From assembly GCA_016867975.1 (NCBI GenBank), contig VGIC01000004.1:11252-75251 (forward strand): a stretch of 64,000 nucleotides of DNA, read 5' to 3'. The position numbers were made by a program, and so were the translations under genes. Every line of letters starts with the position of its first letter. Positions within the stretch are counted from its first letter, which is position 1. This DNA comes from Betaproteobacteria bacterium (GTDB lineage: Bacteria; Pseudomonadota; Gammaproteobacteria; Burkholderiales; Methylophilaceae). The notes beneath the pieces were generated by a model that saw only the letters and a program-made list of their open reading frames with translations, had not been told where the DNA came from and made no database searches. Shown here in pieces: positions 30,402-50,490 of this stretch.

Positions 30402-30475
30402 CTTGTCTGACGTTGTTATCGGCAAGCTCATTTAGAACAAACTAAATGTCGCTTGCCTCTGCCTAATCAGCCAAG
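30402..30475 (-). repeat. Hairpin repeat, divergent variant of the AAGGCG...CAAC family
   Basis: Nested IRs CTTGTCTGA/TCAGCCAAG, GGCAAGC/GCTTGCC and ATTTAG/CTAAAT; minus strand reads AGGCA...CTAAATGAG...CAACG. Confidence 0.55.
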
Positions 30476-30520
30476 CAAATCTTAAATTATCGTAACGATT
30501 GTTTGATAGGAAGTTTATTA

Positions 30521-30624
30521 AAAAATTAAAAGGCAAAGCAAAATCAAGGCGGCAAGGCGCAGAGCAGTACGTATTTGTACGGCAAGCCGAGCCAACGACG
30601 ATTTTGCGAAGCGTTTTAATTTTT
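30521..30624 (+). repeat. Palindromic element (AAGGCG core) directly before the iscU RBS
   Basis: 25-bp arms with 21/25 match; core CAAGGCGG-N6-GCAGAGCAGTACG-TATTT-GTACGGCAAG-N6-CAAC shared with 50391-50490. Confidence 0.7.
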
Positions 30625-30637
30625 AAGGAGTGTTGAA

Positions 30638-31033
30638 ATGGCTTATAGCGACAAAGTACTAGATCATTACGAAAACCCACGTAACGTGGGCAGTCTAGAC
30701 AAAAATGATCCTCAAGTAGGCACCGGCATGGTGGGTGCACCGGCATGTGGCGACGTGATGAAACTCATGATCAAGGTTAATGACGACGGCATCATTGAAG
30801 ATGCCAAATTTAAGACCTATGGTTGCGGCTCCGCGATTGCCTCTAGCTCATTGGTCACAGAGTGGCTAAAAGGCAGAACCATTGAAGAAGCTTATGCAAT
30901 CAAGAATTCTGAGATAGCAGAAGAGCTGGCTTTACCGCCGGTCAAAATCCACTGCTCTGTACTGGCAGAAGATGCCATCAAAGCAGCTGTTGCTGACATC
31001 AAAGCCAAGCAGGCAGCCAAAGATAACGCTTAA
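30638..31033 (+). CDS. iscU: Fe-S scaffold IscU
   Basis: GAPACGDVMKL, KTYGCGSAIASSS and LPPVKIHCS motifs. Confidence 0.98.
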   Translation: MAYSDKVLDHYENPRNVGSLDKNDPQVGTGMVGAPACGDVMKLMIKVNDDGIIEDAKFKTYGCGSAIASSSLVTEWLKGRTIEEAYAIKNSEIAEELALPPVKIHCSVLAEDAIKAAVADIKAKQAAKDNA

Positions 31034-31061
31034 TAAATTTGATGATAAAGACTAAATAGAA

Positions 31062-31385
31062 ATGGCAATCACACTGACACAAACTGCGGCTACCCGCGTA
31101 GAAAAATTCCTGGCGAACCGTGGCAAAGGCATTGGCCTTCGTCTAGGCGTTAAAACTACCGGCTGCTCCGGCATGGCCTATACGCTTGAGTTTGTAGATG
31201 AGATGCAGCCGGAGGACCTTTCATTTGAGAGCCATGGCGTAAAGGTGATTGTAGACCCCAAGAGTCTGGTTTACATCGATGGCACGGAGCTGGACTTTAC
31301 GAAAGAGGGTTTGAACGAAGGCTTTAAATTTAACAACCCGAATGTGAAAGATGAATGCGGCTGTGGCGAAAGTTTCACTGTATAA
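31062..31385 (+). CDS. iscA: A-type Fe-S carrier IscA
   Basis: TTGCSG and ECGCGESF motifs. Confidence 0.98.
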
Positions 31386-31504
31386 AATGCATATGCAAGC
31401 CACTGACTTTGTTGCGCGGTACTCAAAATCCTCATGTACTTCTAGTACATTCCGGCTTCTGCGTTCCGTGCGCCTCGTCATCAATCTTGCTTAAGCATTT
31501 TATA
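31381..31504 (-). repeat. Palindromic element (AAGGCG core, reverse orientation) between iscA and hscB
   Basis: 19-bp arms TATAAAATGCATATGCAAG / CTTGCTTAAGCATTTTATA (17/19) overlapping the iscA stop. Shares GCGCACGGAACGCAGAA and GAGTACCGCG with 35752-35894. Confidence 0.75.
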
Positions 31505-31512
31505 ACTGCCTC

Positions 31513-32031
31513 ATGTTACAAAACCACTTTCAACTTTTCTCTCTGCCCAAGCAATTTGATATCGATGTAAAAGCGCTCGAGTCGAATTACCGCAAGATTC
31601 AATCTGCCAGCCACCCAGACAGATTCGTCAATGCATCTGCATCGGAAAAACTTCAGTCCATGCAACTGGCCACCTCCGCCAACGAGGCCTATCAAGTACT
31701 CAAAAAGCCAGCCAGACGCGCGCAGTATCTGCTTGAACTGAACGGAGTCAATGCGATAGCAGACACCAACACGGCGATGCCTGTCGAATTTCTGATGCAG
31801 CAAATGGAGTGGCGCGAGCGCATGGAAGATGCAAAAGCAGCGCGTGACATCGCAACCTTGGAAACGCTCAACGCTGAACTGCACAAGGATGCACGCTCTA
31901 TCCAGACCGAGTTGGCGCACCTGTTCGATAGGCAAAACGACCTAAGCAAAGCCACCGCAGAGACACGTAAACTCATTTTTATTGATAAAGTCTGTGCCGA
32001 TATTCTGCATGCCATAGAACAAATTGAGTAG
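31513..32031 (+). CDS. hscB: Co-chaperone HscB
   Basis: J-domain HPD motif, NEAYQVLK..RAQYLL and EFLMQQMEWRE. Confidence 0.96.
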   Translation: MLQNHFQLFSLPKQFDIDVKALESNYRKIQSASHPDRFVNASASEKLQSMQLATSANEAYQVLKKPARRAQYLLELNGVNAIADTNTAMPVEFLMQQMEWRERMEDAKAARDIATLETLNAELHKDARSIQTELAHLFDRQNDLSKATAETRKLIFIDKVCADILHAIEQIE

Positions 32032-32083
32032 GCTCGGCTAGAATAAGCACCTCAGATTAATCACACCCACTTTAAATTCAGGT

Positions 32084-33979
32084 ATGGCATTACTCCAAAT
32101 TTCCGAACCAGGCATGAGCGCCGCTCCCCACCAGCACCGACTGGCTGTGGGCATCGACCTAGGCACCACGAACTCCTTGGTAGCCACAGTGCGCAGCGGC
32201 ATGAGTACTGTGCTGCAGGATGACCATGGTCATGCCCTACTACCTTCTGTGGTGCGCTATGCCATCAACGGTGAAGTGATTGTCGGCCATGAAGCACAAG
32301 CGCAGCAAAGCGCCGACCCCGCCAACACCATCAGCTCGGTCAAACGCTTCATGGGGCGCGGCATCCACGACATTGTGGATCGAGCACATATCCCTTACCG
32401 TTTTGTGACCAGTCAGCAAGCGCAGTCATCAAAGATGCTGCAAATCGATACGCGCGCTGGACTCAAAACGCCGGTAGAAATCTCTGCCGAGATTTTGAAG
32501 ACGCTCAAAGCACGTGCAGAAAAGTCACTCGGTGGCGAATTGGTCGGTGTAGTGATCACCGTGCCCGCTTACTTTGATGACGCACAGCGCCAAGCCACTA
32601 AAGATGCAGCGAGACTAGCCGGCCTAAATGTGCTACGCCTGCTGAATGAACCCACTGCAGCGGCTGTTGCCTATGGTTTGGACAATGCTTCAGAAGGCAC
32701 CTATGTGATTTACGACTTAGGCGGCGGCACCTTCGATGTTTCTATCCTGCGGCTTGCCAAAGGCGTGTTTGAGGTACTGGCCACTAACGGCGACTCTGCC
32801 TTGGGAGGCGATGATTTTGATCACCGCATCTACTGCTGGGTACTAGACAAAGTACGTGAAGCAAGCAAAAACTTCGTCCCACTCAATGAAGAAGACACGC
32901 GCCTCTTGCTCAACAAAGCGCGGCAGGCAAAAGAATGGCTCACCGATAATTTTGAAGCTCAGATCCTCTGCAAACTCAGCACGGGCACATTGGTAGATGT
33001 CACGCTGACCGCACCGCAACTGGTTGAGATCACGGAGCATCTTGTCACCAAGACACTTTCCCCCACTCGCAAAGCCATGCGCGATGCCAACCTGAGCATT
33101 GAAGACATCCATGGTGTAGTACTGGTAGGCGGCGCGACACGCATGCCGCACATCCGGCAGGCAGTCGAAGATTTCTTCAAACAGGAACCACTCACCAATT
33201 TAGATCCTGATAAAGTCGTCGCGCTGGGTGCAGCCATCCAAGCCAATGCATTAGTAGGCAACCGCAGTGATAACGATTTACTGTTGCTAGATGTCACACC
33301 ACTTTCTCTTGGTCTGGAAACCATGGGCGGCTTGGTAGAAAAAATCATTCCGCGTAACAGCACCCTGCCGATTGCACGCGCGCAAGATTTCACCACTTAC
33401 AAGGATGGCCAGACTGCGATGAGCATCCATATCGTACAAGGTGAGCGTGAGCTAGTCAGTGATTGCCGCTCACTGGCACGTTTTGATTTGCGAGGCATTC
33501 CACCCATGGCAGCTGGGGCAGCGCGTATCCGCGTCACGTTCACGGTAGATGCCGATGGCTTGTTATCAGTTTCTGCGCGAGAGCAAAGCACTGGCGTGGA
33601 AGCCCACATCGAAGTGAAGCCTTCCTATGGACTTACGGAAGAAGAAATCACTAACATGCTCAAAGCCTCTTTCGCCAGCGCGGCGACCGACAAAAAAGCC
33701 CGCATGTTGCATGAAGCCAGAGTCAGCGCTGGTGCAATTATTCAATCAGTGAATCTAGCGCTGAAAAATGATGGACATCTCATTAACAACGCAGAACAAC
33801 AAGCCATTCGTGATGAAGTTGCACGACTAGAAGCGGTTGCACAAGCTGATGATGCACATGCCATTAATCAGGCGGTGGAAAAGCTCAATCAAGCAACTGA
33901 GGCTTTTGCAGCCGCCCGTATGAATGCAAGTGTCAGCTTGGCCTTAAGCGGCAAAGCCATTAACTCTTTGGAAATGTAA
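32084..33979 (+). CDS. hscA: Fe-S chaperone HscA (Hsp70 family)
   Basis: [34 protein letters not shown] and DLGGGTFD motifs. Confidence 0.97.
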
Positions 33980-33981
33980 CC

Positions 33982-34323
33982 ATGCCACAAATCATCGTAC
34001 TGCCTCACATTGAACTCTGCCCGGAAGGCGCGGCAATTGAAGCCAACACAGGTGACTCCATTTGCGACACCTTACTCAACCACGATATTGATATTGACCA
34101 TGCCTGCGACAAAGTTTGCGCATGCACCACTTGCCACGTCATTGTGCGTGAAGGCTACAAAAGCCTGAACCCAGCTGAAGAGAGTGAAGAAGACCTGCTC
34201 GACAAGGCGTGGGGGCTGGAGCCCTTGTCACGCCTATCTTGCCAGGCCATTGTGGGTGATAGCGACCTTGTAGTGGAAATTCCCAAATACAGCATCAACA
34301 TGGCCAAAGAAGGCAAACGCTAG
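33982..34323 (+). CDS. fdx: ISC 2Fe-2S ferredoxin
   Basis: HACDKVCACTTCH and SRLSCQ motifs. Confidence 0.97.
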   Translation: MPQIIVLPHIELCPEGAAIEANTGDSICDTLLNHDIDIDHACDKVCACTTCHVIVREGYKSLNPAEESEEDLLDKAWGLEPLSRLSCQAIVGDSDLVVEIPKYSINMAKEGKR

Positions 34324-34343
34324 GGCCTATTCACAGGCCCTAG
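34320..34343. terminator. Hairpin between convergent fdx and SulP
   Basis: CTAGGGCCT-attcac-AGGCCCTAG; no clear U-tract. Confidence 0.45.
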
Positions 34344-34353
34344 TTAACAGACC

Positions 34354-35724
34354 CTAGTTCGCATCCACCTTCTCGATTTCCACCGTATCTTCTTTGCTGT
34401 GATGCAGCGGCACTTTTTTCAATAAAACAGCCATTGCAAAAATCACAATCGCGCTCAACACCGCTGGCAAGAAACCAGTGAGCGGCACCATGGCAGCGGT
34501 ATAAATCATCAGCCAAAAGTGAAACTTGCTTTTCATCTCCAGCACTTCCACAACTTCTTCCCATTTCACCATGCCAGAAGCCACATACAACAAAATGCCG
34601 CCGATACAAGCCATAGGTACTTGTTCCAAATGTGTTGCCAAATAGGCCGCCAGCAACAATTTGAACACGAATTTTGCAATACCAGCCAAAGGCGAAATCG
34701 CGCCCATGCGGATATTCACAGCGGTTCTGGCCAATGCACCAGTGTGCGGAAATCCGTTGAACAAGGGTGTGAAAATGTTCACCATACCCTGCCCCCATAG
34801 CTCTTTATTGGGGTTGTACGGTATGCCGGTGTTATTTGCCAACCTATCTGCCATGCGGCTACACAGCAGGCTTTCCACTGCGGCCACAAAGTAAATCGCC
34901 ACCGCAAAATACGCCAAATCCAGCCATACTGCGCCCGTCATTTCAGGTAATGCTGGCATGGTGAAGTTGAGAAAATCGGTTGGGATATTACCGTATTTAT
35001 CTTTGATTAAGACTAAGCCTTTGTCTTTCCAAAAAGTAGCGGCAGCCAACCAACCCAGCCCCAAACCAAATATCGGCGCGGGGATAAACACAGAGATTTT
35101 GATCAGGGTTTTGCAAATGGCAAATGTCGCCAGCGCCACAATCAGCGCGTAAACATTCATGTCCGGCAAAAATTCCAAGGTCTTTTGAATTTGGCTCATG
35201 AAGTTGTAGCCAATTTTCTCTTTAAAGCCAAACACCTCGCCCATTTGCGACATGGCAATCACAATCGCAATGCCGATGGTAAACCCCACCACAATGGAAT
35301 GCGGCACCAATGCCACGATACGGCCTTTTTTGGCAAGCCCTGTCATCATCAACATGGCACCTGCGATGATGGAACACAGCACCAAAAAGCTGTGATTATA
35401 AGTGGCCATTAAGCCCGCAATCACGGGGATATACGCCGCTGTGGGGCCATAGACTTGATATTTACTACCGCCAAACAGCGCGCCCAGCAAGCCCGCCACC
35501 GCCCCGCCCACAATGCCTTGCTCAGGGCGCAAGCCACTGGCCATGGCAAAGCCCATCGCCAGCGGAATGGCCACCATGGCGACCACCAAGCCGGCGGTTA
35601 AATCCTTAAATATATTTTTAGCAATATTGCCTTTTTTTAAGTCTTCATAACGCCCGTCATTGGGGTTCATGTAAAACTTGAGCGTACGTAGCAAATCGTG
35701 GCTATCTGTCTCGTGTTTAGTCAT
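34354..35724 (-). CDS. SulP/SLC26-family anion transporter lacking a STAS domain
   Basis: DLTAGLVVAMVAIPLAMGFAMASG, QVYGPT, NKELWGQG and ALARTAVN motifs; ends shortly after the last TM helix. Start placed at MTKHE; the ORF-track extension lies in a repeat element. Confidence 0.9.
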   Translation of the reverse strand: MTKHETDSHDLLRTLKFYMNPNDGRYEDLKKGNIAKNIFKDLTAGLVVAMVAIPLAMGFAMASGLRPEQGIVGGAVAGLLGALFGGSKYQVYGPTAAYIPVIAGLMATYNHSFLVLCSIIAGAMLMMTGLAKKGRIVALVPHSIVVGFTIGIAIVIAMSQMGEVFGFKEKIGYNFMSQIQKTLEFLPDMNVYALIVALATFAICKTLIKISVFIPAPIFGLGLGWLAAATFWKDKGLVLIKDKYGNIPTDFLNFTMPALPEMTGAVWLDLAYFAVAIYFVAAVESLLCSRMADRLANNTGIPYNPNKELWGQGMVNIFTPLFNGFPHTGALARTAVNIRMGAISPLAGIAKFVFKLLLAAYLATHLEQVPMACIGGILLYVASGMVKWEEVVEVLEMKSKFHFWLMIYTAAMVPLTGFLPAVLSAIVIFAMAVLLKKVPLHHSKEDTVEIEKVDAN

Positions 35725-35751
35725 TTTATAAGTGTCCTGTGTGTTGTTTAA

Positions 35752-35894
35752 GGAAAGGCTGATTAAATCGGCGAGCGAGATAAAGTGCAAGGCGCACGGA
35801 ACGCAGAAACCGAGATAGTATGCGGTATACAGCGAGGTTGCGAGTACCGCGTAACGAAGCAATTTGCTCGCGTAGACATTTAATCAGTGTTTCC
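35752..35894. mobile_element. MITE-like element: GGAAA..CTGATTAAAT shell with AAGGCG core
   Basis: 17-bp TIRs (15/17) flanked by TTAA and TTAG; the right flank is the carbonic anhydrase stop. Core is homologous to 31381-31504 and 56344-56757. Confidence 0.75.
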
Positions 35895-36539
35895 TTAGAT
35901 TTTAAGGGTGTCTTGCATGAAGTGAACCTTGCCTGTACTAATGTCATACACTGCACCGATGATTGCGATTTTTTTGTCTTGTATCATGTCGGTGACAATG
36001 TCGCTACTACGGATGATGGTGTCAATTTGATGTTGCACGCTCAGGCGGTTAATTTTTTCCACGAAATCAGGGTTTTTTGAGCACCGATCTTCTGGGTTTG
36101 TAATGGTTTTTTCATGTCTAATCGCCGGTTTAATCAAATTGATAATCTCACCAATGTGACCATCCATAAAGTTATCGCAGGCTGCTTTAACTGCACCGCA
36201 TGAGGTATGCCCCATCACCACAATCAGCTTGCTGCCTAAATATTTGCTGGCAAACTCTAGGCTGCCAATGGCTTTGTCTGAGGCGATATTGCCTGCCAAA
36301 CGCACACTAAATATATCCCCCAGCGCTTGATCAAATACCAACTCTACTGGAGCGCGAGAATCACTGCAGCTTAAAAAAGAAGCAAAAGGGTGTTGCTTGT
36401 CCTTGGTTTGGTGGATGAGCGTTTGAAAGTCTTTGTCTTCCTCGCAGTCAGACAAAAAACGCTGATTACCTTCAATCAAAATATCCAGCGCCTCTTGCGG
36501 CGTCATTTTGTCACGGTCTAATAACGGGTGTTTATACAT
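35895..36539 (-). CDS. Beta-class carbonic anhydrase
   Basis: EGNQRF, CSDSR and GHTSCGAV zinc-ligand motifs; GDIFSVRLAGN. Confidence 0.95.
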   Translation of the reverse strand: MYKHPLLDRDKMTPQEALDILIEGNQRFLSDCEEDKDFQTLIHQTKDKQHPFASFLSCSDSRAPVELVFDQALGDIFSVRLAGNIASDKAIGSLEFASKYLGSKLIVVMGHTSCGAVKAACDNFMDGHIGEIINLIKPAIRHEKTITNPEDRCSKNPDFVEKINRLSVQHQIDTIIRSSDIVTDMIQDKKIAIIGAVYDISTGKVHFMQDTLKI

Positions 36540-36555
36540 CAGGTTCTCCTTATTA

Positions 36556-38100
36556 TTAACTCTTAGGTTGTATAAATGCTACTTTTTCTACTGTAATGTT
36601 TTTGAGTTTTGCATGTAACTCGTAGTCACGTAAATACTCTGCCACATCATAAGAAATGGATTTGGACTTAGTGCAATCGAGAATCACCTTAGCGTTGGCA
36701 GGTATGGCCTCCAAAGCCTCAATGATGCGTGCCTTGTTAAAGAAAGAGACTTCTTCTGCCAACACAATATGGTGTACCTCGTGACCTTCTTCTGTGGTTT
36801 GAATGTCTTTCATATGGTAAGAATTACGGTAGCTGTGGTGCAAGGCAAAACCCAGCCCCACCAGCAAACCTAAACCAATACCAGTCAGCAAATCTGTGAA
36901 TACAATGGCGACAATCGTCACCATGAAGGGGGAAAACTGTTCCCAACCCAGCGCATACATTTGTTTAAACAAAGCGGGTTTTGCTAGTTTATAACCTACA
37001 ATAATCAAGATAGTCGCCAAGCTCGCCAACGGAATTAAGTTCAAATAACTGGCAATGGTAATGGCGCTGATTAACAACCAAAAGCCATGCAATATGGCTG
37101 ATAACTTGGTTCTCGCGCCAAAGGTAATGTTAGCAGAGCTACGCACAATCACTTGCGTGACGGGCAAGCCGCCGATTAAACCTGAAAGCATGTTGCCCAA
37201 GCCTTGCGCCTTAAGCTCTTGGTTGGTAGGCGTCACGCGTTTCAGGGGGTCTAATTTATCAGTCGCTTCGACGCACAATAAGGTTTCCAAGCTTGCCACG
37301 ATGGCTAATACAATCGCCGTTTTAATGACCGCCACATTATTCCACTGGCTAAAGTCCGGGTAAGTAAAGAAACTCACAAACTCACCTACACTATTGGCTA
37401 CCGGTAAACTGACAATCTGACTAGGTTCTAAACTGAATGGTAATAAGCCTTTTTGATACGTCACATTCATGGCAATACCGACCAATACCACCACAATTGG
37501 ACCTTGCAATACTTGAAAAAACTTATGCTTTTTAGTGAGAAACACATCCCACAAAATAAGGATTGCGAATGAAATCAAGGCAATCGTCACTGCCCCGGGC
37601 GTTAAATAGTCCCAAGCGTTGGAGAGCGTTGTAAAGGTATTTTCACCTGACGCCTGCTCAAACGACATACTTCCCTCAAAGTCTGCATCATAGCCAAAGG
37701 CATGCGGGATTTGTTTTAAGATGATCAATAAACCAATACCGGTGAGCATGCCCTTAATGACCGATGAGGGCACAAAATAGGCGACAAACCCCGCTTTAAA
37801 AAACCCCAAGGCATATTGAATCGCGCCCGCCAACACCACCGCGAGCAAAAAGGCCTCAAAGCTGCCAAGCGCACCAATTGCGGTGAGCACAATCACGGCC
37901 AAGCCGGCGGCCGGGCCACTGACACCTAACTGAGAACCACTAAAAATACCAACGACGATACCGCCCACAATGCCCGCAATAATGCCGGAAAATAATGGCG
38001 CGCCTGAAGCCAAAGCGATGCCCAAACACAAAGGCAGAGCGACGAAAAATACCACGATACTTGCCGGCAAGTCACTTTTAAATTCTTTAAATAATTGCAT
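36556..38100 (-). CDS. SulP-family anion permease with STAS-like tail (probably bicarbonate)
   Basis: SDLPASIVVFFVALPLCLGIALASG, VSGPAAGL, NQELKAQG, VIVRSSAN and a short STAS-like C-domain; AGGGAG RBS before the ATG at 38100. Confidence 0.92.
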   Translation of the reverse strand: MQLFKEFKSDLPASIVVFFVALPLCLGIALASGAPLFSGIIAGIVGGIVVGIFSGSQLGVSGPAAGLAVIVLTAIGALGSFEAFLLAVVLAGAIQYALGFFKAGFVAYFVPSSVIKGMLTGIGLLIILKQIPHAFGYDADFEGSMSFEQASGENTFTTLSNAWDYLTPGAVTIALISFAILILWDVFLTKKHKFFQVLQGPIVVVLVGIAMNVTYQKGLLPFSLEPSQIVSLPVANSVGEFVSFFTYPDFSQWNNVAVIKTAIVLAIVASLETLLCVEATDKLDPLKRVTPTNQELKAQGLGNMLSGLIGGLPVTQVIVRSSANITFGARTKLSAILHGFWLLISAITIASYLNLIPLASLATILIIVGYKLAKPALFKQMYALGWEQFSPFMVTIVAIVFTDLLTGIGLGLLVGLGFALHHSYRNSYHMKDIQTTEEGHEVHHIVLAEEVSFFNKARIIEALEAIPANAKVILDCTKSKSISYDVAEYLRDYELHAKLKNITVEKVAFIQPKS

Positions 38101-38116
38101 GTTAGTGAAACTCCCT

Positions 38117-38401
38117 GAGACCTTTGCACAAAGCATTTTTAACCTAAAAATCTATCAAGTTTGTCATTCCGGCGGAGGCCGGAATCCAGACAGGCTCCAT
38201 AGCCAACTAAAATAACTTTAGCAAGGGCGATTGTTAACTAAACTATAAAAACAATAGGTTATATTGATTTTTCCGACATTATTTTCACTAAAGTTACTAC
38301 TCTAAATGTCACCTTGCCTAGATTCCGGCCTCCGCCGGAATGACGGGTTTTTGATATTTTAGTTAAAAATTGAACCATTTTTTGTTTTGTGCAAAGGTCT
38401 C
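38117..38401. mobile_element. 285-bp nested-palindrome MITE with GAGACCTTTGCA ends and an inverted REP-like doublet
   Basis: Perfect 16-bp TIR GAGACCTTTGCACAAA; subterminal AT-rich IR; inner 27-bp IR GTCATTCCGGCGGAGGCCGGAATCCAG (38163-38189 vs 38318-38344, 26/27). Confidence 0.8.
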
Positions 38402-38523
38402 TCTCTGTTATTAAATAGTGGCTTAAGCTAATACAGATGACGACTGCGCATATGCCTTAAACCACAAAAACCCTGCTTGTGAATATTCACAGGCAGGGCA
38501 GCTTACCAGCCGATATATTACAG

Positions 38524-38802
38524 TCAGTCTTTACTGCCTTCCAAATAAGGTTGTTTACCCAACATATTGATTCGCAATTTTTGATATTCAGTCGGGCCGT
38601 CTTTGGCCTTATCTTCTCCAGTCACCTTCGTCGCACCTTCCCAACCTTCTTCTTTGTTGTTTGCAGACTCATCCGGCAATTGCTGATATGGGCGCTTGGA
38701 CAGGTTCTGGTTGTTTACATTATCCTTGTCAGTTGCATATGCCAAACCACTCGCCAACAAAATCGCGGTAGATACAATCACTGCCAAATTAAAGCTTTTC
38801 AT
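38524..38802 (-). CDS. Small secreted protein B (two KRPY-like motifs flanking GWEGAT)
   Basis: AGGAG RBS, signal peptide (LAYA-T); paralogous to 38838-39110 with a 20-bp identical stretch. Confidence 0.85.
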   Translation of the reverse strand: MKSFNLAVIVSTAILLASGLAYATDKDNVNNQNLSKRPYQQLPDESANNKEEGWEGATKVTGEDKAKDGPTEYQKLRINMLGKQPYLEGSKD

Positions 38803-41941: not shown

Positions 41942-42405
41942 CCGAAGCAGACATTCTAAACGCTAAGATTCTCATCGTAGACGATGCAGAGGCCAATTTA
42001 AAGCTACTGGAAGATTTACTGGCAAGAGAGGGATTTCATCAAATCATCAGCACCGCAGACTCCACACGTGCATTGGATTTATTCAAAGCGTTTGAGCCGG
42101 ACTTAATCCTGCTGGACTTAATGATGCCCGAGTTAGATGGCTACGCGGTATTAGAAATACTCTCGCGCCATATCGCAAAAGATGAGTATCTACCGGTACT
42201 GGTACTGACGGCAGATGCCACCATTGGCGCAAAAAGAAAAGCCTTGGCTTTAGGGGCCAAGGACTTTTTAACTAAACCTTTTGATACCATTGAGGCGATG
42301 CTTCGCGTTTGGAACCTGCTTGAAACGCGCCTGTTGTATCGCCATTTGAAATCACTCAATGCCGACATTAAACCTGCGGTGCATTCACATCAATCTACTG
42401 AATAA
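41938..42405 (+). CDS. Single-domain response regulator (REC only)
   Basis: ILIVDD, LLDLMMP, LTA and FLTKPF motifs with only a short tail. Confidence 0.92.
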   Translation: MTEADILNAKILIVDDAEANLKLLEDLLAREGFHQIISTADSTRALDLFKAFEPDLILLDLMMPELDGYAVLEILSRHIAKDEYLPVLVLTADATIGAKRKALALGAKDFLTKPFDTIEAMLRVWNLLETRLLYRHLKSLNADIKPAVHSHQSTE

Positions 42406-42432
42406 CTAAGCTGCTGAATAAAAGCCCTGTAG

Positions 42433-43416
42433 TTATTGAGTAAGCATCGCCACTTGATTCAAAGCCACATCAGCACGTGCAGTTCTTTCAGTGATCTTAT
42501 TCAAATAAGCGATCGCTTGTGGATGCTCAGCATTTAATGACAGCACTTTTTTGAAGTGATCTTTAGCTTGTTCATAAGCTTGTGTTTCATACTCAGCTGC
42601 AGCCAAGTGAAACCAAGACTCAGCTACTTCAGGCTCGCTTTTTACCCAAGCTTGAGAAACCGCCAACAAAGATTTCCAATTTTTGGAAACATAAGGTTGC
42701 ACCACTTGCATAAAGTAAGGACGTTCCTTTTCACTTGCAGCCCAGAAAGGTTTTTTACTTTCAACCCCCAAAGCCTGAGCAGGCTTATCCATCAGTGACT
42801 GCACCCACTCTACCGGCATATAGAAATACTGTGCTTCGCTACCACGGCTTTTTAAGGTGATGATTCCCACCAGAGACCCAGTTTCATCAAACACGCCACC
42901 GCCACTAGCCCCTAATTTGAAAGGACTGCTTGCGCGTATTACCATACTGCCATCCATGGGAAACATTGCCTTAACGACACCATAAGTATTCACTGGCACA
43001 GTAGTCTCACCAGGATAGCCCACAGTAAAGACTGCGGTTTCATATTTCAAACTCTTAGTAGCATGCATCTTTGCTACAGGAGCTTCTAAATCAGCAACCG
43101 TAAGAATACATAAGTCATGGTGCCAATCCGGCTTGACTGACGTTGCTTCATGAGCGACACCATTCGCCACCACTTTTACATCACGTGCATCGGTCACCAC
43201 ATGGCAATTGGTCACCACTTGGTCTTTAGCAATGACCACTGCTGATCCAAGACCATCAGACCCATTATTGTGCTTTACTTGCACTCGCAACACTTGTGCA
43301 TTCAACTCGCGCACCATTTCATCGGTAGGCGTAGCCCAAGCATGATGAGTCAAACACCCCATGAAAACTGTCGAACCTAATATGGCTAGATTTAATACTC
43401 TAAGATAATGTTTCAT
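42433..43416 (-). CDS. Secreted trypsin-like (S1C) serine protease with C-terminal TPR
   Basis: Signal peptide; triad motifs TNCHV, HDLC and GASGGG; TPR-like AESWFHLAAAEY. Confidence 0.88.
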   Translation of the reverse strand: MKHYLRVLNLAILGSTVFMGCLTHHAWATPTDEMVRELNAQVLRVQVKHNNGSDGLGSAVVIAKDQVVTNCHVVTDARDVKVVANGVAHEATSVKPDWHHDLCILTVADLEAPVAKMHATKSLKYETAVFTVGYPGETTVPVNTYGVVKAMFPMDGSMVIRASSPFKLGASGGGVFDETGSLVGIITLKSRGSEAQYFYMPVEWVQSLMDKPAQALGVESKKPFWAASEKERPYFMQVVQPYVSKNWKSLLAVSQAWVKSEPEVAESWFHLAAAEYETQAYEQAKDHFKKVLSLNAEHPQAIAYLNKITERTARADVALNQVAMLTQ

Positions 43417-43550
43417 GATTGCTTGCCTCGCTTCACTAACTTAAACGTTGCTGACAATCACTACACTGCAATTACCGTTCCAACTAGAAAATATTTGGCG
43501 CAACCTACCATTAAACCTTTCATAAACAAATAGTTATAGAATTTTAAGAA

Positions 43551-43580
43551 AAGAAAAAGGCCTCTAGAATTTAGAGGCCT
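43551..43580 (-). terminator. Intrinsic terminator after the beta-barrel operon
   Basis: AGGCCTCTA/TAGAGGCCT stem with a U-tract on the minus strand. Confidence 0.7.
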
Positions 43581-43658
43581 CAAAAGACAATTACGCACAT
43601 TATCAGTGCGCTTGGTATTTAATGGTGCATGTTGCACCTGTAAGGAAAACACATTGAA

Positions 43659-44747
43659 CTAGTAAGCAAAAATAATGGCTGTTGTGGCAATCAAGTTATT
43701 TTGACTTGGCTCACCATGATTCAAATAGATTTTATCTTTACTGTGAAATTTTCTTAATTCCGCGCGTAAAGTAACATGACTTAACACTTTGAAATCAGCA
43801 TTTACTGAATAGCTCGTTGTTCTAAAACCAGATGGCGTGCCGGTATCAACAATCACCCCATCTTTATCCTGATAATATTCTGCCCTTGCCGTAAAGCCCA
43901 ACCTTTCAGAATAGGCGTATCTAGCAATCACAATCGGTGTAAACCATATATTATAGCGATTGCTGTTTTTCTCTTTTTGCTCTGCGCCAATGTCGAATCC
44001 GGTCAGCAGACTCCATTGATCACCCAACTGGTATTGCCCATAGAAATTATGAAAATAACGCATTTTGTGGGTTCTGTCTGACTTATCGTTACCAATAAAC
44101 GAGCTGCTATTGAGTGTAATCTTAGCGTTCGGTTTATAAGTGAGTTGATGCCCGAATGATGGCATCGTGTTCCCATCTGGTCGCTGGATGCGCTGCCAGC
44201 CGTTTAACAGCAACCCACTGGCATACCATCGGCCATCTTCTGAGGTATATGAAACTCTTACACCCGTCTCAAAATAAGGCGAATTGTCGGCAAGGATGCT
44301 CCTTGTCAATGTCCAGTTTTCTGCGCCTATGGCACTCTCAAAGCCAATATGCGAAGGCAAAACGCCAGCATCCAGCCACAAATCATGTGTATCGGACAAC
44401 TTCATCCCGACATTGACTTCAAAAATCTTTTGTAAATCATCAGGTTCGGCCGCGTAATTTGCCCGCATATAAGTCCCGGAGCCCAGTGAAAGATTCGCCC
44501 GAACACGGTCGGACTCCAGCTTGGCTTTGACTATGGCCAGATTGAGACTGGGCTTACCTGTTTTGTTGTGGCTATAAGCAAAACTTGGGCGCGTATCATC
44601 TGAGGCATGATCAAAGTCATGTATATGGTAAGTTTCCAGATACCCGCCAAAACTTAACTTAGCGCGCTCATCATCTACTGTCTCGTCGGCCAACAAAACT
44701 TTGGGCAAAGACAAGACAGCAATGAGTAGGATTTGCTTACTTTTCAC
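43659..44747 (-). CDS. Outer membrane porin, BBP2/OmpL-like family
   Basis: Signal peptide, LWLDAGVLPSHIGFE, NWTLTRSILADNSPYFETG, alternating beta-strands and C-terminal aromatic residue. Confidence 0.8.
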   Translation of the reverse strand: MKSKQILLIAVLSLPKVLLADETVDDERAKLSFGGYLETYHIHDFDHASDDTRPSFAYSHNKTGKPSLNLAIVKAKLESDRVRANLSLGSGTYMRANYAAEPDDLQKIFEVNVGMKLSDTHDLWLDAGVLPSHIGFESAIGAENWTLTRSILADNSPYFETGVRVSYTSEDGRWYASGLLLNGWQRIQRPDGNTMPSFGHQLTYKPNAKITLNSSSFIGNDKSDRTHKMRYFHNFYGQYQLGDQWSLLTGFDIGAEQKEKNSNRYNIWFTPIVIARYAYSERLGFTARAEYYQDKDGVIVDTGTPSGFRTTSYSVNADFKVLSHVTLRAELRKFHSKDKIYLNHGEPSQNNLIATTAIIFAY

Positions 44748-44773
44748 AATTAGCCATGCATTAAAAGCAATGA

Positions 44774-45472
44774 TTAAAAACTCAGCACCAAAGTTGAAGA
44801 GGCCACATGATTTTCCGAGTCAGGCTTACCGTGTTGATTCACATACTGATTTAAATAACCGACCTCAAATTTAACATCAGGCTGAAACGCCCAGTTGACG
44901 CCCAGAAAGGCACGATTCTGATCAAAACCACGACGCGCGCCGTAATCGGTATCGTTTAAATTGATGAAATACTCATCATACGCAACCCAGTGCAACTTGG
45001 GGCTTATGGCAGAAGGCATGGTCAGGCGGATCATCTGCCGAATTTTATGTCCGGTTTCATGGGAGTTCTCGATAAAGCGCTGCTCCAGACGGGTGCGGCT
45101 CTGAATCGACAGCGAACCTACTGGCTCAAAATTATGCAGCAGTTGCTGCCACACACGATTTTCCTCAAAGGATGGCTTACTATTCGGATGTGTCGTCACA
45201 TGCGCATAACCCAGCCACAAGCTGGTTTGTTTGTTCAAAGCATAAAAAACCGCCGGGCGAATAAGCAGTTGATCAAAATGGCTACCTTCTTCACGCCAGC
45301 GCGGCTGCAGTTCGGCATACCAGCGCCAGTTTTCCAGCGGCAACGCACCGGTTGCATTCACATTCAGCCAAAAACGACCATCTTCTTCAGTATCGGCATT
45401 AGCCTGCGTACTGAGTAATAACAAAAAAAATAACATTCGCGCACTAAACATAAAGCGCATAAGTAACTCCAA
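44774..45472 (-). CDS. DUF2490-family outer membrane beta-barrel
   Basis: ENRVWQQ, RTRLEQRF, YDEYFINL..GFDQNRAFLG and EVGYLNQ motifs; terminal Phe. Confidence 0.85.
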   Translation of the reverse strand: MELLMRFMFSARMLFFLLLLSTQANADTEEDGRFWLNVNATGALPLENWRWYAELQPRWREEGSHFDQLLIRPAVFYALNKQTSLWLGYAHVTTHPNSKPSFEENRVWQQLLHNFEPVGSLSIQSRTRLEQRFIENSHETGHKIRQMIRLTMPSAISPKLHWVAYDEYFINLNDTDYGARRGFDQNRAFLGVNWAFQPDVKFEVGYLNQYVNQHGKPDSENHVASSTLVLSF

Positions 45473-45502
45473 AACAAAGCCGATTATTGTTCCTTAAGGA
45501 TA

Positions 45503-47041
45503 TTAAAACCCTAATAAGGTCAATTCCGTATAGAAGAAATCAGAATCCATATCGCGGTCTGCCTGACCAGCAACCTTTCTTGAAATGGTTTTAACAAAAT
45601 CTTCCGCCCAGAAGTGGGCGTAGCCCAAGTTAAGCGATGCGTATTGGTTGATTGGGAAGCGCACGCGCAAGTCGAACTCTTTACCTAGATCCTTGCCACT
45701 CTTGCCTGTCTGGTCGCGCAGGTTGGCACCAGCATTCCAGCGATCAGTCGCGCTATCCAGTTGAAACCAGCTAAAACCGGTATCTACTTTCACGTTATCC
45801 AGAAAGGCTATTTTAGGGTCAAACTCCAACCGTAATTTGGGCGTACGGATATTTTCCATCTGGATGTAATCATCGTTTGACCAAGGGCGGGCAAAACCGA
45901 ATAACCGTTCAAAGCGTTGGTGCTTGCCATCATTCGGGTGCTTGTCACCGTTGACCACGCCATAGAAGGCACTCAAGCGCGGTTTCCATGGGTACTTGAA
46001 GCTGTAGCCAATCTCGGCGTTGTAGGCATAGGCGTCGTGATCCAGTTCAGCAATGAATGCGCCAGCATTGCTCAATTCGTCCTGATGCCCCCATTGTTTA
46101 ATATAGCTAACGTCATAATCAAATCCGCTTTTACCAACCATGCCGTAGGCACGCAAACCGGCAGTATGAATCTCACGGTCAATTTTAGTGTTAGCCGCAG
46201 CAGCTTTGCCGTTGCTGTCGTATTTCACCTCGTCGCCATCCTGCTTCAGCAACAGATAATAAGGTTCTAGTGTGACCGTTTCCGACCAGCCGCGCCAATT
46301 ACCAATCACACCGTAAAAGTCCTGCGCATGGTCTACTTCATCCAGCCGCGTGGTAAAGCGTTGCACCGGTTTCACCGCGAGCAGTTCCAATTGCCAGTCA
46401 TTCTTCTTGTCTCCTATCTGCGCCCTTAGCCCTTGAAAGGTGTTGGTGGTGTTACGCCACTCATTGCGCGCAATCAGGCGGCGGTCTATGGCTTCCCAGG
46501 CGTGGCGCCCGGCACGTACCCAAACAGGGCGTGCGTTACCAAGATCATCTTTCCCTAGAAAACTCTCTTTAAAGTTAAGCTCCAGATAGCCTTGCAGAAT
46601 ATCGGCTTGGTCGATATCGCGTGTGTCGTATTCACGGGTATAGTCGCCATGGTTGCGGCGAGAGTCTTGCACTTCGATAGCAAATCGCAATGGATCGAGA
46701 GTATTCTTCACCCCCAGATAAGCGCGGGTGCGTTGCAACAATAGCTCGTCGATGTTTTGATCTGCACGGCGAAAATCATTATCGCGGCGCTCAAAACGCG
46801 CACGGTATTCCAGCCCCACATCCAGCCAATCCACATCGGCAAAAGTGTCGTAATCTTTCAGCCAGGTCTTGTTCGCCTGCTTTACATAGCGTGGCGGCTC
46901 AGTCTCTTTCTGTGTGCCATAACTTTTACGTTCGACGTAATAATCCTGACGCTCCAACTGCCCAGCAGCATCCTCTGCGGCAATAACGCCTCCGCAGACC
47001 AATAACCCTATCAGTGCAAACCAATTACGATACATAAGCAT
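45503..47041 (-). CDS. Alginate-export (AlgE-like) family outer membrane beta-barrel
   Basis: Signal peptide, LEYRARFE, RAGRH..DRRLIARNEWRNTTNTFQG, FGFARPWS, GKEFDL and terminal Phe. Confidence 0.8.
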   Translation of the reverse strand: MLMYRNWFALIGLLVCGGVIAAEDAAGQLERQDYYVERKSYGTQKETEPPRYVKQANKTWLKDYDTFADVDWLDVGLEYRARFERRDNDFRRADQNIDELLLQRTRAYLGVKNTLDPLRFAIEVQDSRRNHGDYTREYDTRDIDQADILQGYLELNFKESFLGKDDLGNARPVWVRAGRHAWEAIDRRLIARNEWRNTTNTFQGLRAQIGDKKNDWQLELLAVKPVQRFTTRLDEVDHAQDFYGVIGNWRGWSETVTLEPYYLLLKQDGDEVKYDSNGKAAAANTKIDREIHTAGLRAYGMVGKSGFDYDVSYIKQWGHQDELSNAGAFIAELDHDAYAYNAEIGYSFKYPWKPRLSAFYGVVNGDKHPNDGKHQRFERLFGFARPWSNDDYIQMENIRTPKLRLEFDPKIAFLDNVKVDTGFSWFQLDSATDRWNAGANLRDQTGKSGKDLGKEFDLRVRFPINQYASLNLGYAHFWAEDFVKTISRKVAGQADRDMDSDFFYTELTLLGF

Positions 47042-47148
47042 TCATCCGATACTGGGCTAATCATAGCAAACTTGGCACCTCCTGCTAAATAATAATTAAG
47101 CATTTACTTATGGAAGCACGGAATAAGGTTCCATATGCAATCGGCAAT

Positions 47149-47169
47149 AAAAAACCCCGCAATTGCGGG
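47149..47169 (-). terminator. Intrinsic terminator after the OprO/P porin
   Basis: CCCGC-aatt-GCGGG followed by GTTTTTT on the minus strand. Confidence 0.65.
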
Positions 47170-47247
47170 ATAAAGAGGGAGTTTGTAAACCTTTTATTGG
47201 AATGAATTTGTCGTTCTAAATGTGCAATTCACATGCCTTTTACACGC

Positions 47248-48627
47248 CTAGAAAGACAAATCCCACTGCGCCCATAGGCGTGTTTCATCATCTCTCTTTT
47301 TAGAGGTCGTAGTTGTTGCAGGGTCTTCCACCGTCAATCGACTGGCTTGCAGACTAATCTTATTGTTATGCCCATCGAAGAAGTAATTGACCACAGCACT
47401 CAATTCTTTTTGCTTGTCATTATCTCGGTCGGTATCCATATCCACAACGGCATAACGCGCTGCGATTTCTAGCTCTTTTGGAATGCCTGAAATGATGCCG
47501 TGAGGAAAATAACCTGCCTGCACAAAACCACCCAATAATTTGACCTCTTCATCAAAGTTCAAAGTATCTTTGATTTTCTTGGAGTGCAATTCATGCAAGA
47601 ATGAAAAGCCTTTATATTTAAAACTAACTTCTCCCAGCATTTGGTCGATCTTATATTGTCCAGGTGCAGGTCTCTTTGCAGAATCTTTATCATTTGGATC
47701 TTTATATCTGCTATCTTTTAATACCCTGCAACCGTCATTTGCTGTCTCAAATGCCGTACATTTGCTTTGGTTAGTATTGGCAGCAATCGAGATATTTAAA
47801 TGCGGCTCTTCGCTGAAGTCGGTATCCGATTGGTCCCATTTCATTTCTCCGCCCATGGCATTCCATTGCAGGCGACCGGAATACATCATATTGTCATCGT
47901 CATTATCACGCTCACCCACGCCCACGCCAGTGAAAGCACCCACGTAGTAGGTCATATCTACAGGCGTACCAGCAAACAAATTACCTTTAAGCTCAACACC
48001 TTGTTGACGATCGACCGTGAAAATATCGTTGACGATAGAACGATTGACAAACTGTTGTGCACCGGATGAAGCCACACGCTCGTTGTTGTACGAGACTTTG
48101 CCACGCCCAACACGCAACTGCGCCCATTTATATTTGTCCACCGTCAGTGATAAATCACGCAGAACCGGTTGTGACCAATCATACTGCATGTAGTATTTAA
48201 TCCAGGGTACAAACGCGTGGCCCTTCAATTTGGTACGCGCACGGCGAATCATAAAGGAATTGGTGTCTGCATCAAGATCTTTCGTTGTGCGTGGGTCTTT
48301 ATCAAACGGTTCTGCATACCTAAATTGTATTCTATTCTGGATAGCCAGTGAAAACTTGTCATCTTCGGTCCCAAATTCGAAACCACTCTTACCATAACTG
48401 ACACTCGCCGGCGCATACCCTTTCTTAGGCTCCTTTTTCTTGTTGCTAGCAACTTCGCCCCCATGCCCCTTCATCAACAACGCACCTTCCTCTTCAGTCA
48501 ACACCCCTTTAGCCACCAGCGCCTGAACCAAATCGCTCGTAGTGTCAGCAGATGACTGCGTACCAAACCCCATCATCACTGAACCTGCAAGCGCTGCTGC
48601 CAACATGCCATGTAGTTTGTAGCTCAT
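47248..48627 (-). CDS. Phosphate-selective porin, OprO/OprP family
   Basis: LVQALVAKGVLTEEE N-terminus, RIQFRY, IRRARTKLKG, FVNRS and RQQGV motifs; upstream Pho box. Confidence 0.85.
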   Translation of the reverse strand: MSYKLHGMLAAALAGSVMMGFGTQSSADTTSDLVQALVAKGVLTEEEGALLMKGHGGEVASNKKKEPKKGYAPASVSYGKSGFEFGTEDDKFSLAIQNRIQFRYAEPFDKDPRTTKDLDADTNSFMIRRARTKLKGHAFVPWIKYYMQYDWSQPVLRDLSLTVDKYKWAQLRVGRGKVSYNNERVASSGAQQFVNRSIVNDIFTVDRQQGVELKGNLFAGTPVDMTYYVGAFTGVGVGERDNDDDNMMYSGRLQWNAMGGEMKWDQSDTDFSEEPHLNISIAANTNQSKCTAFETANDGCRVLKDSRYKDPNDKDSAKRPAPGQYKIDQMLGEVSFKYKGFSFLHELHSKKIKDTLNFDEEVKLLGGFVQAGYFPHGIISGIPKELEIAARYAVVDMDTDRDNDKQKELSAVVNYFFDGHNNKISLQASRLTVEDPATTTTSKKRDDETRLWAQWDLSF

Positions 48628-48686
48628 TTAAATTCCCTCTTGTTTTAAGTAGTGATTTACTGCATTTTAAATTTTGAACTGCCTGT

Positions 48687-48704
48687 GTGACAATTTGATG
48701 ACAA
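48687..48704 (-). promoter_or_regulatory. Pho box upstream of the porin
   Basis: TTGTCAT-caaa-TTGTCAC on the minus strand, 11-bp periodicity. Confidence 0.8.
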
Positions 48705-48754
48705 AAAGCAATTTGCTCACAAACCCTGACTAAATGTTGCTTTTTTGCAACAAC

Positions 48755-48788
48755 AAAAAGCCGCCTGTCGTTTCCGGCAGGCGGCTTT
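48755..48788 (-). terminator. Intrinsic terminator after lysS
   Basis: AAAGCCGCCTG/CAGGCGGCTTT stem with a U-tract. Confidence 0.8.
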
Positions 48789-48815
48789 CTAAATGGGACT
48801 GCTGCGATGTAAGAA

Positions 48816-50351
48816 CTAAGCTTCAGCGCGCATATGTGGAAACAGAATCACATCACGAATACTTGGGCTGTCGGTGATCATCATCACCAAACGGTCGATA
48901 CCGATCCCGCAACCGCCTGTCGGTGGCATGCCATATTCCAGCGCGCGAATAAAGTCTGCATCGTAATACATCGCTTCTTGGTCACCCGCCTCTTTTGCTT
49001 TCATTTGTGCATGGAAGCGTGCTGCTTGGTCTTCGGCATCATTCAGCTCGCTAAAACCATTGGCGATCTCACGACCACAGACGAATAATTCGAAACGCTC
49101 GGTGATTTCCGGGTTGGCATCCGAGGCACGCGCCAAAGGTGACACTTCCACCGGATAATCAATGATATAGGTCGGGTTCCATAATTGCGCTTCGGCGGTT
49201 TCTTCAAACAAGGCTAATTGCAAGGCGCCTAAACCGGCATGGTCAAACGGTTTGGTGCCGAACTTCATGATTTCTTTACGCAGGAAAGCTTCATCATGCA
49301 ATTGCTCTAAGGTATATTGCGGTGCATATTTCTGAATCGCCCCCACAATGGTCAAACGCTCGAACGGCTTGCTTAAATCCAGCTCACGCCCCTGATACTG
49401 CAACACGGCAGAACCGGTGGCCGCAATGGCTGCGGTACGGATACAACGCTCGGTAAAGTCCATCAGCCACAGGTAATCGGTATAGGCCGCATAGAATTCC
49501 ATCATGGTGAATTCTGGGTTATGACGTACGCTTAAGCCTTCATTACGGAAGTTACGGTTCACCTCAAACACACGCTCAAAACCGCCAACGACCAAACGCT
49601 TTAAATAAAGCTCAGGCGCAATACGCATGAACATCTGCATATCCAGCGCATTATGATGCGTAATAAATGGCTTGGCCGATGCACCGCCCGGAATCGGGTG
49701 CAGCATGGGCGTTTCTACCTCAAGGAATTGATTCTCCAGCATAAACGCACGAATGGCAGACACCACTTTACTGCGCGCAACAAAGGTTTTGCGTGTTTCT
49801 TCAGACACAATCAAATCCACATAACGCTGACGGTATTTCACCTCTTGGTCTTGCAGTCCGTGGAATTTTTCTGGCAATGGGCGCAATGACTTGGTCAATA
49901 AGCGCAATTCAGACACTTTGACGGAAAGTTCGCCTGTTTTGGTTTTAAACAACACGCCCTTGGCCGCGATGATGTCGCCTAAGTCCCAGTGTTTAAAAGC
50001 CTCATAAAGCGCTTCACTATTCTCACCCGCCAAGTTGTCTTTAGAAATAAACAACTGAATACGGCCAGTACTGTCTTGCACGGTGGCAAAGCTGGCTTTA
50101 CCCATCACGCGCTTGAGCATCATGCGGCCGGCAATACTCACGTGCACGGCTTTAGGGTCTAAGATTTCGTTTTCAAAACCACCAAATTCGGCATGCAGCA
50201 CCGCTGCTTGTGAGTCAGGCTTGAAATCATTAGGAAAAGCCGCGCCGCCATTTGATTTAGCGTGTTCACGTATTGTTTTTAATTTTTCGCGACGCTCGGC
50301 AATGACGTGGTTTTCATCTATGGGCTGTGGAGTTGTTGATTGTTCAGTCAT
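48816..50351 (-). CDS. lysS: Lysyl-tRNA synthetase (class II)
   Basis: [38 protein letters not shown] and GIGIDRL motifs. Confidence 0.98.
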
Positions 50352-50390
50352 TTTTTTAAGTGTTTAATTTCAAAGGTTAAATTAACAAAA

Positions 50391-50490
50391 TTTCGTTTGC
50401 ATTCCTGCTCAGACAAGGCGGAGACACGCAGACAGTACGCATTGTACGGCAAGTGGCGACAACACCGTATGAGCGGGAATGAAAGCGTAA
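50391..50490 (+). repeat. Palindromic element (AAGGCG core) between prfB and lysS
   Basis: Arms CATTCCTGCTCA/TGAGCGGGAATG with imperfect extension; core CAAGGCGG-N6-GCAGACAGTACG-CATT-GTACGGCAAG-N6-CAAC. Confidence 0.7.

Follow-up and report, generated by a model that had tools for sequence, protein, structure and literature searches.

The six hairpin-forming sites described here are located in a 64,000-nucleotide (nt) stretch of a betaproteobacterial genome of the family Methylophilaceae (contig VGIC01000004.1, here C4, positions 11252-75251; hereafter, the window), whose assembly comprises 1.56 Mb with 47.7% G+C and is labelled G000. They very probably represent three subfamilies of a single family of non-coding, hairpin-forming mobile elements, relatives of the Correia/NEMIS repeats of Neisseria, in which a conserved core travels as exchangeable cargo and, where co-transcribed, would act as an RNA hairpin; the high confidence expressed here applies to this explanation as a whole. 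An earlier note on this DNA had flagged six copies of a dispersed core with compensatory changes, including one at 56344. All six exist and share one hairpin architecture, and the view of them as a single set of six copies had to be corrected: the sites are real, they fall into three subfamilies, two of the copies lie on the minus strand, and further copies occur elsewhere in the genome. The elements are given below, with scores from the covariance model R1, which was built from betaproteobacterial copies with a training set including Neisseriaceae, and for which the E-values are rough.

30386-30491, minus strand: element A, a 106-nt hairpin directly 3' of the iscS stop codon, with a fold of -40 kcal/mol
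30521-30624, plus strand: type-1 copy 1, a 104-nt hairpin upstream of iscU (66.2 bits, E=2.9e-14)
31376-31508, minus strand: type-2 reverse copy, with its core at 31411-31475 and an outer arm overlapping the iscA stop codon
35746-35899, plus strand: type-2 forward copy, with its core at 35789-35855 in an enclosing GCTGATTAAATCGGCGAGCG shell
50390-50492, plus strand: type-1 copy 2, a 103-nt hairpin with its core at 50415-50466 (75.4 bits, the top score of the genome)
56344-56757, plus strand: composite copy, in which three hairpin inserts interrupt a type-2 core inside a GAGACCTTTGCAAAAG shell, with CATAT and CATAC on its flanks

The architecture that the copies have in common is a rod of approximately 100-150 nt, in which an outer stem P0 of at least 12 bp is followed by (A/T)AGGC, the 8-bp stem P1, GCAGA, the stem P2, (G)CAA, P1', AAC(R)(M)C and P0'. 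The sequence of P0 is specific to the copy or subfamily and that of P1 is free; the internal loops, (A/T)AGGC opposite AAC(R)(M)C and GCAGA opposite (G)CAA, are near-invariant. In type-1 copy 1, AAGGC occupies positions 30546-30550, P1 (30551-30558) pairs with 30586-30593, GCAGAG lies at 30559-30564, P2 (30565-30570) pairs with 30577-30582, and CAA (30583-30585) and AACGAC (30594-30599) complete the right side. As had been claimed for the copies at 30521 and 50391, the two type-1 cores (30546-30599 and 50415-50466) are identical letter for letter in their shared motifs, (A)AGGC-N8-GCAGA(G)-CAGTAC-loop-GTACGG-CAA-N8-AAC, and the three pairs adjacent to the junction differ between them exactly as proposed, GGC:GCC versus CAC:GTG. 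The copies noted at 31381 (reverse) and 35752, for which different central hairpins had been described, form the second subfamily, whose cores have AGGCGCACGGAACGCAGAA...GAGTACCGCG(Y)AAC in common and indeed differ in the central hairpin. Finally, the TTTAG/CTAAAT variant reported at 30402 corresponds to element A. Its reverse-oriented core (30411-30464) reads AGGC-AGAGGCAAGC-GAC-ATTTAG-loop-CTAAAT-GA-GCTTGCCGAT-AACAACG and represents a third variant, in which ATTTAG/CTAAAT serves as P2 (the apical stem) and the AGGC and AACAACG junctions are retained. The hairpin domain measures between 103 and 174 nt per site, and the composite copy 414 nt.

Pairing of the stems was evaluated in an alignment (A1) of 52 non-redundant copies, which came from G000, from relatives of it and from scanning a single genome of each species, and which were picked only on the invariant P2 and junction letters and aligned with MAFFT. 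P2, a short apical hairpin, consists of Y, a bulged A and GTAC ... GTAC, R. In total, 85.2% of the stem cells were paired, compared to 60.3% with shuffled partners and 26-39% with the register slid, and both sides change at 19 out of 25 pairs. For P1 alone, 57 distinct arm pairs showed a mean of 6.3 paired positions out of eight (4.24 +/- 0.15 with shuffled partners); several of them are perfect 8-bp helices of unrelated sequence, and tandem G.A pairs are tolerated. The second alignment (A2), comprising 14 matches in further orders of the Gammaproteobacteria and four in Firmicutes (one Clostridia metagenome-assembled genome (MAG) and three species of Streptococcus), was model-fitted and thus leans towards structure. 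Within these 18 sequences, 92.4% of the stem cells were paired and double changes occurred at 24 of the 25 pairs, including every P2 pair, which was found in the versions GTAC/GTAC, GTGC/GCAC, GTAG/CTAC, ATAG/CTAT, and ATAT/ATAT.

The fold is also strand-specific, because the mismatch patterns are asymmetric between the strands: on the written strand, purine-purine mismatches outnumber pyrimidine-pyrimidine mismatches by 135 to 25, and G.T by 52 to 33 over A.C. One strand folds preferentially, the written strand giving the more stable fold in 50 of 57 copies with DNA parameters and in 40 of 57 with RNA parameters. These strand-specific mismatches point to one folded single strand that is recognised by a putative factor. 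The earlier proposal of selection on a fold with conserved unpaired motifs, as for a protein-recognised single-stranded DNA (ssDNA) or RNA element, therefore stands as far as the fold is concerned, since P0, P1, and P2 covary, the junctions are kept across phyla and the fold is strand-specific; no protein recognising ssDNA or RNA in this way was identified. Variants with GAAGA/CGAG fit the kink-turn consensus, in which tandem G.A and A.G pairs come after a bulge of three nucleotides. A kink-turn at the GCAGA/CAA loop is not conserved family-wide, many members having GCCG or GCGG and lacking the GA step.

Within the genome, ten significant matches to the type-1 model and roughly nine or more type-2 copies were detected. 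The core pattern matched five times and never when read backwards, and this backward control also gave no match in 61 out of 61 genomes tested. Copies of the element at 35746-35899 are located on contigs C12 (92% identity) and C23 (79% identity). A simple scan of the window for additional copies, based on AGGC...AAC and flank pairing, performed no better than on shuffled sequence. Another repeat subfamily, GCGGTTTTTGGGGTGTACGGCAAGGCACGATGAGGCAGC...CTGCAACGAAGAGTAACGCCGCC, present at C26:11414, C9:5850, and C1:79056 of the same genome, retains the AAGGC and AACGCC junctions and has a different apex. In type-1 copy 2, the outer arms (50398-50411 and 50470-50483) read GCATTCCTGCTCA ... TGAGCGGGAATG and resemble the ATTCCC...GGGAAT stem of dRS3/NTS, so that the copy looks as though its core had been placed into a loop belonging to a different hairpin repeat.

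Knowledge of Correia elements goes back to 1986 and that of BOX elements to 1992; the former are reported to duplicate TA. The earlier note had cautioned that a match to a described repeat would lower novelty, and this proved to be the case, as the core is the centre of the Correia/NEMIS element. At Neisseria loci it is embedded within tatagtggattaaatttaaatcagga ... tccactata, i.e., in a Correia/NEMIS element, with centre and fold following CAAGGCG-N8/9-GCAGACAGTAC-loop-GTACGGCAAG-N7-CAACGCC; the window cores with identical motifs reached 66 and 75 bits. Moreover, the window copies match the approximately 105-nt short form in size and are likewise long, intergenic, non-coding hairpins. In contrast to the Neisseria loci, the 26-bp terminal inverted repeat TATAGTGGATTAAATTTAAATCAGGA (TATAGTGGATTAA...) is absent from all six window copies, the outer arms of which are unrelated to it. 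Also unlike Correia elements, the window copies show no TA duplication, the multi-copy shell found here giving 5-bp duplications, and the type-2 and composite copies carry extra helices or inserts undescribed for Correia elements. The window elements are thus a relative of a known repeat family that lacks the ends and the duplication of Correia elements proper, and not a new class. In other Neisseriaceae, the core was found in different arms of the TATAG type. The 26-bp repeat is attributed to Correia et al. (1986), and the consulted sections of reviews and primary papers name no mobilising enzyme or cognate transposase for Correia elements.

To place the core among described families, a comparison with Rfam and a search of Betaproteobacteria with a covariance model, both suggested in the earlier note, were carried out. 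No Rfam 15 family matched the window as a whole at the gathering score, and two copies searched with the threshold relaxed to E up to 10 gave nothing beyond chance matches to microRNAs and snoRNAs (E=0.7-5); the match to a described repeat came from Correia instead. Of 250 high-quality genomes of the order, 84 were found with R1 to contain the core, representing 61 of 131 genera, as were 36 of 297 genomes from the other orders of the class. In the order-wide search, up to 19 candidates were scored per genome, and per-genome counts in the large searches are lower bounds. Matches to R1 were also obtained in Streptococcus pseudopneumoniae (29), S. mitis (33), S. acidominimus (79), and the Clostridia MAG (20). 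The core is homologous to the Correia centre and is spread over Beta- and Gammaproteobacteria and Firmicutes.

The streptococcal matches, reading ...AAACTAGAAAGCTAGGC GCAGACAGTAC ttta GTACGGCAAG ACGACGCTGACGTGG..., contain GTACGGCAAGACGACGCTGACG, which is essentially the BOXA1R primer sequence CTACGGCAAGGCGACGCTGACG; AC-type BOX elements, as represented by the AC forms of S. pneumoniae and S. mitis, therefore share the core. However, BOX elements have their own ends (TATACTCAATGAAAATC...) and boxB modules at the apex, neither of which is present in the window copies, so that only the junction core is shared, with BOX junctions of CTAGRAAGC and TGACGTGG as compared to AAGGC and CAACGMCG in the core considered here. 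The ends of the S. acidominimus elements (G296, L075), TATAGCCGTTTAG..., are very like the TATAGCCGTTCAAATT... ends of some Neisseriaceae subfamilies, a likeness of sequence that suggests transfer between phyla. The BRE repeat (Hot et al. 2011, PMC3110155) is, by description only, similar to the elements studied here in being an intergenic repeat of about 90 bp that sometimes occurs in tandem, and its host range, covering Bordetella, Comamonadaceae, and Rhodocyclaceae, overlaps with that of the R1 matches; BRE is not aligned with the direction of replication. ERIC/IRU elements of Enterobacteriaceae are TA-flanked hairpin MITEs (miniature transposable elements with inverted repeats), and an E. 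coli copy (...GCAGGAAGGCGACAAGCGAG...GAACGCAGAC...) faintly resembles the AAGGC and AACGCAG junctions, but the centre of ERIC is unrelated to the core. Even with the threshold relaxed to E up to 10, R1 did not match the ERIC locus of E. coli. Those portions of the published reviews and papers that were available treat Correia, BOX, and ERIC as separate families, and Correia and BOX as genus-specific.

The elements behave as MITE-like insertions and not as a dedicated RNA gene, because presence and absence differ at orthologous sites, target duplications exist and both orientations to transcription occur. Generic MITE features, namely terminal inverted repeats, lack of coding capacity and small size, are found in the window copies, and no gene could be assigned to any of them, the overlapping open reading frames (ORFs) being short mechanical ORFs or extended neighbouring genes. 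Across the genus, the iscS-iscU spacer ranges between 12 nt (no element) and 366 nt (three elements) and contains element A alone (L152, L155, L160, and L164), type-1 alone, both, tandem type-1 pairs, or internally deleted relics; other relatives are devoid of element A, and type-1 copies are present in this spacer in at least 13 genomes of the genus. One relative (G026, L157) carries a different, palindromic insert of 157 nt in the same spacer, rich in GGGACTAGG/CCCTAG repeats. Type-1 copy 2 is specific to this lineage, as it is missing from 29 out of 29 loci of genus relatives, two of which carry unrelated insertions there. In most relatives, both flanks can be aligned and two minus-strand genes abut at the site, a stop codon lying beside a GTG or ATG start. 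In G000, approximately 140 nt, consisting of the 103-nt hairpin and about 40 AT-rich nt, are inserted exactly after the stop codon, and the gene downstream has a different N-terminus (MTEQSTT...). An insert of about 0.9 kb between the two genes was observed at the copy-2 site of another relative (G005, L194).

The core occurs in a variety of shells. At least four different ones enclose the type-2 core, among them the GAGACC shell (GAGACCTTTGCAAAAG...), a multi-copy type-2 MITE with 5-bp target duplications that are perfect in four copies (CTTCA, AGAAA, TGATG, and CTTAG) and match in four out of five positions in six more. The type-1 core was found in the GAGCGGCTAACAAAAC shell in genomes G099 and G070, with TAA or TTA on both sides in eight out of ten copies. 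The same shell termini may enclose unrelated interiors, as at positions 38117-38401 of the window and at C3:91043. Because one core occurs in shells with different termini and three duplication lengths, and the same termini carry other cargo, the core appears to be an exchangeable internal cargo module rather than a transposase-binding end. The element at 38117-38401 is a 285-nt MITE with GAGACCTTTGCA termini as in the type-2 shell, flanked by TCCCT and TCTCT and without an AGGC/AAC core; its interior contains an inverted hairpin pair, TGTCATTCCGGCGGAGGCCGGAATCCAGAC, resembling the Neisseria NTS/dRS3 (Ssn-related) motif. An autonomous parent was sought in G099, which has 147 ends of the GAGCGGCTAACAAAAC shell, among shell ends about 1 kb apart; the sole candidate consists of two small copies flanking an ordinary gene of 269 amino acids.

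Regarding their position relative to genes, as deduced from crude, ORF-based gene maps, the elements follow a preferred orientation. The gene on the AAC side lies on the opposite strand in 49 out of 70 non-Neisseria copies (binomial p=0.001) and in 29 out of 40 copies of the TATAG type, and its stop codon is usually located at a distance of 35-40 nt from the core, where P0 has its outer end. The orientation holds for every one of the six window copies. In five of them, the hairpin is in contact with the stop codon or overlaps it, e.g., in type-1 copy 2, which directly follows a minus-strand gene's stop codon (50492-50494), and in the copy at 35746-35899, the right end of which overlaps that of the minus-strand gene at 35895-36539; it lies about 90 nt from the end of the composite at 56344. 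De Gregorio and colleagues are said to have described a similar stop-codon orientation rule for ERIC in Yersinia in 2005. For the latter element, an orientation-dependent effect of RNase E is summarised by Croucher et al., and reports of orientation-dependent effects of ERIC on mRNA are cited in PMC3049150. Intrinsic termination was considered and rejected, as no T-run follows the hairpins on either strand.

Constraint in place was assessed by means of pairwise identity for 14 isc-spacer copies from 13 genomes. The junctions AAGGC and GCAGA(G) reached values of 0.87 and 0.81, P2 between 0.89 and 0.91, and the inner part of P0 between 0.90 and 0.93. Lower values were obtained for P1 (0.54-0.66), the apical loop (0.53), the left flank (0.42), and the four-fold degenerate sites of the adjacent iscU gene (0.45). 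The element in this spacer is thus conserved to a much greater extent than the neutral sequence of that locus, which reflects either selection there or homogenisation from other copies. Tandem paralogues (L147) are present among the isc-spacer copies, so that an argument from strict orthology is weakened.

A co-transcribed element would fold into a long RNA hairpin, which may act on the 3' end of the message or on the intercistronic region by setting or protecting message ends between cistrons. Such an action would explain the occurrence of copies right after stop codons in one preferred orientation, and the orientation bias would reflect the strand that is tolerated in the message. In Neisseria, transcribed Correia hairpins are substrates of RNase III and give rise to RNA 3' ends, and the window copies would behave likewise. 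In a 2026 atlas of RNA 3' ends, the strongest signals lie in Correia repeats, at reported RNase III sites (PMC13714241), and binding or cleavage of CREE by RNase III is described in an earlier report (PMC2649163). Several observations weigh against this account of the elements as MITEs acting through an RNA hairpin. What the flanking mRNA usually contains is the strand complementary to the better-folding one, with the exception of the type-1 copy next to iscU, which is in sense orientation; since the better-folding strand is usually absent from the mRNA, RNA processing does not account for the strand asymmetry, and it also leaves the near-invariant loops unexplained. For these loops and the preference for the non-mRNA strand, the best working model would be one folded single strand recognised by a putative factor. 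As regards mobility, type-1 copy 2 is not a clean transposition footprint, considering its roughly 40 extra bases and the remodelled start of the downstream gene; no target duplication was readable for the two type-1 copies of the window, and no transposase or other partner was identified. Furthermore, the conservation in the isc spacer is explained by a host function no less well than by a selfish element.

It is conceivable, though rather unlikely, that the core primarily constitutes a recognition module for a protein binding one folded DNA single strand, such as a site-specific ssDNA nuclease, a recombinase or a transposase. Comparable to Ssn nucleases and NTS, RAYTs and REPs, or integron integrases and attC, such a protein would keep the loops invariant and spread the module between shells. 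This explanation agrees with the strand-specific fold, with loops that are invariant next to stems that are free, and with the presence of the same core in unrelated shells and nested in other hairpins; a double-stranded DNA site is ruled out because loop length and stem sequence vary. A precedent is provided by Neisseria, where Ssn nucleases cleave hairpin repeats strand-specifically as ssDNA. NTS/SRM hairpins are dispersed hairpin repeats as well, and their strand-specific ssDNA recognition offers a working model (Chenal et al. 2025, PMC11893778). However, the core does not fit their published consensus HGTCWYN(0-2)YYVSBRHN(0-5)WNVSBRGN(0-2)RNCYNB, nor is the Ssn-related motif enriched in G000 (11 matches versus 4-12 in shuffles). 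A near-perfect NTS-like hairpin, CGTCATTCCAGCGCAAGCTGGAATCCAG, was observed at about position 3300 of contig C9. No replichore pattern, and hence no replication-strand bias as in IS200/IS605, was apparent in a complete genome with 72 copies, of which 39 on the plus strand are interleaved with 33 on the minus strand. Neither was an association with a RAYT/Y1 HUH mobiliser obtained (55 of 84 versus 101 of 167 genomes, odds ratio 1.24, Fisher p=0.49); eleven genomes with at least 11 copies lack a Y1 gene, including G047, G072, G106, G124, G171, G242, and G246. REP/REPIN elements with RAYT also have conserved arms and a variable tip, whereas here the tip is conserved and the arms vary. No candidate gene was detected beside any copy. 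The single Y1_Tnp (IS200/RAYT-like) match of G000 (C28:1244-1570, L021) contains an in-frame TAG and has no adjoining core copy.

Less probable still is the explanation that the copies are host-functional structured RNAs, either cis-regulatory or small RNAs, that are selected at each locus and were copied into MITEs only secondarily. The values for junctions and P2 in the isc spacer, where the flanking spacer cannot be aligned, would be in accordance with it, as would compensatory changes that distinguish the P0 and P1 stems of copies sharing a locus and the reported transcription of BRE, likened to the core by description only, into two small RNAs of Bordetella, BprJ1 and BprJ2 (PMC3110155). 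Against such a role, copies occur in mixed orientations to transcription, the better-folding strand being antisense in most cases, and the copies are dispensable, many relatives having no element at either window locus. Elements are found between unrelated genes and in multi-copy bursts with target duplications, some of the apparent orthologues are the tandem paralogues mentioned above, and Rfam 15 gave no match even under the relaxed threshold. At the DNA level, covariation could also arise as a by-product, in that quasi-palindromes are re-symmetrised by template switching during replication and no selection on the fold is needed; we regard this as distinctly improbable. Adjacent double changes on both arms between G000 and L143 (AA/TT versus TG/CA), for which one templated event could suffice, and internal deletions that are symmetric about the dyad (L170, L171, and L166) are compatible with template switching, but it leaves unexplained the invariant unpaired loops, the strong predominance of purine-purine mismatches over pyrimidine-pyrimidine ones, the tandem G.A pairs that P1 tolerates, and the conservation across phyla.

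Mobile elements of the Correia kinship, with the core as cargo, accordingly remain the favoured explanation for the six window sites. Correia/NEMIS and BOX repeats were known already; what is added here is a cross-phylum, strand-specific conserved core in window copies without Correia ends. A wider and more tentative proposal, which we consider possible rather than probable, is that the AAGGC / GCAG / GCAAG / CAACG rod constitutes a module in its own right, which a putative widespread factor recognises as one folded single strand and which rides in MITEs with unrelated ends across Proteobacteria and Firmicutes; this would unite Correia, AC-type BOX, and probably BRE as a superfamily. If this wider proposal is true, discovery of the factor would account for the manner of, or the reason for, the persistence of Correia-type elements. 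The centre shared by Correia and BOX elements has a covarying, strand-specific fold, which is present in about one-third of the betaproteobacterial genomes examined, in further orders of the Gammaproteobacteria and in Firmicutes, within shells of varied ends and duplications and directly behind stop codons in one orientation; this reframes the repeats as carriers of a common structured module, and the folded top and bottom strands of the 55-nt core represent concrete probes for a partner. In G000 itself, hairpin insertions have come to lie between iscS and iscU and between two genes that used to abut, and both may alter operon expression.

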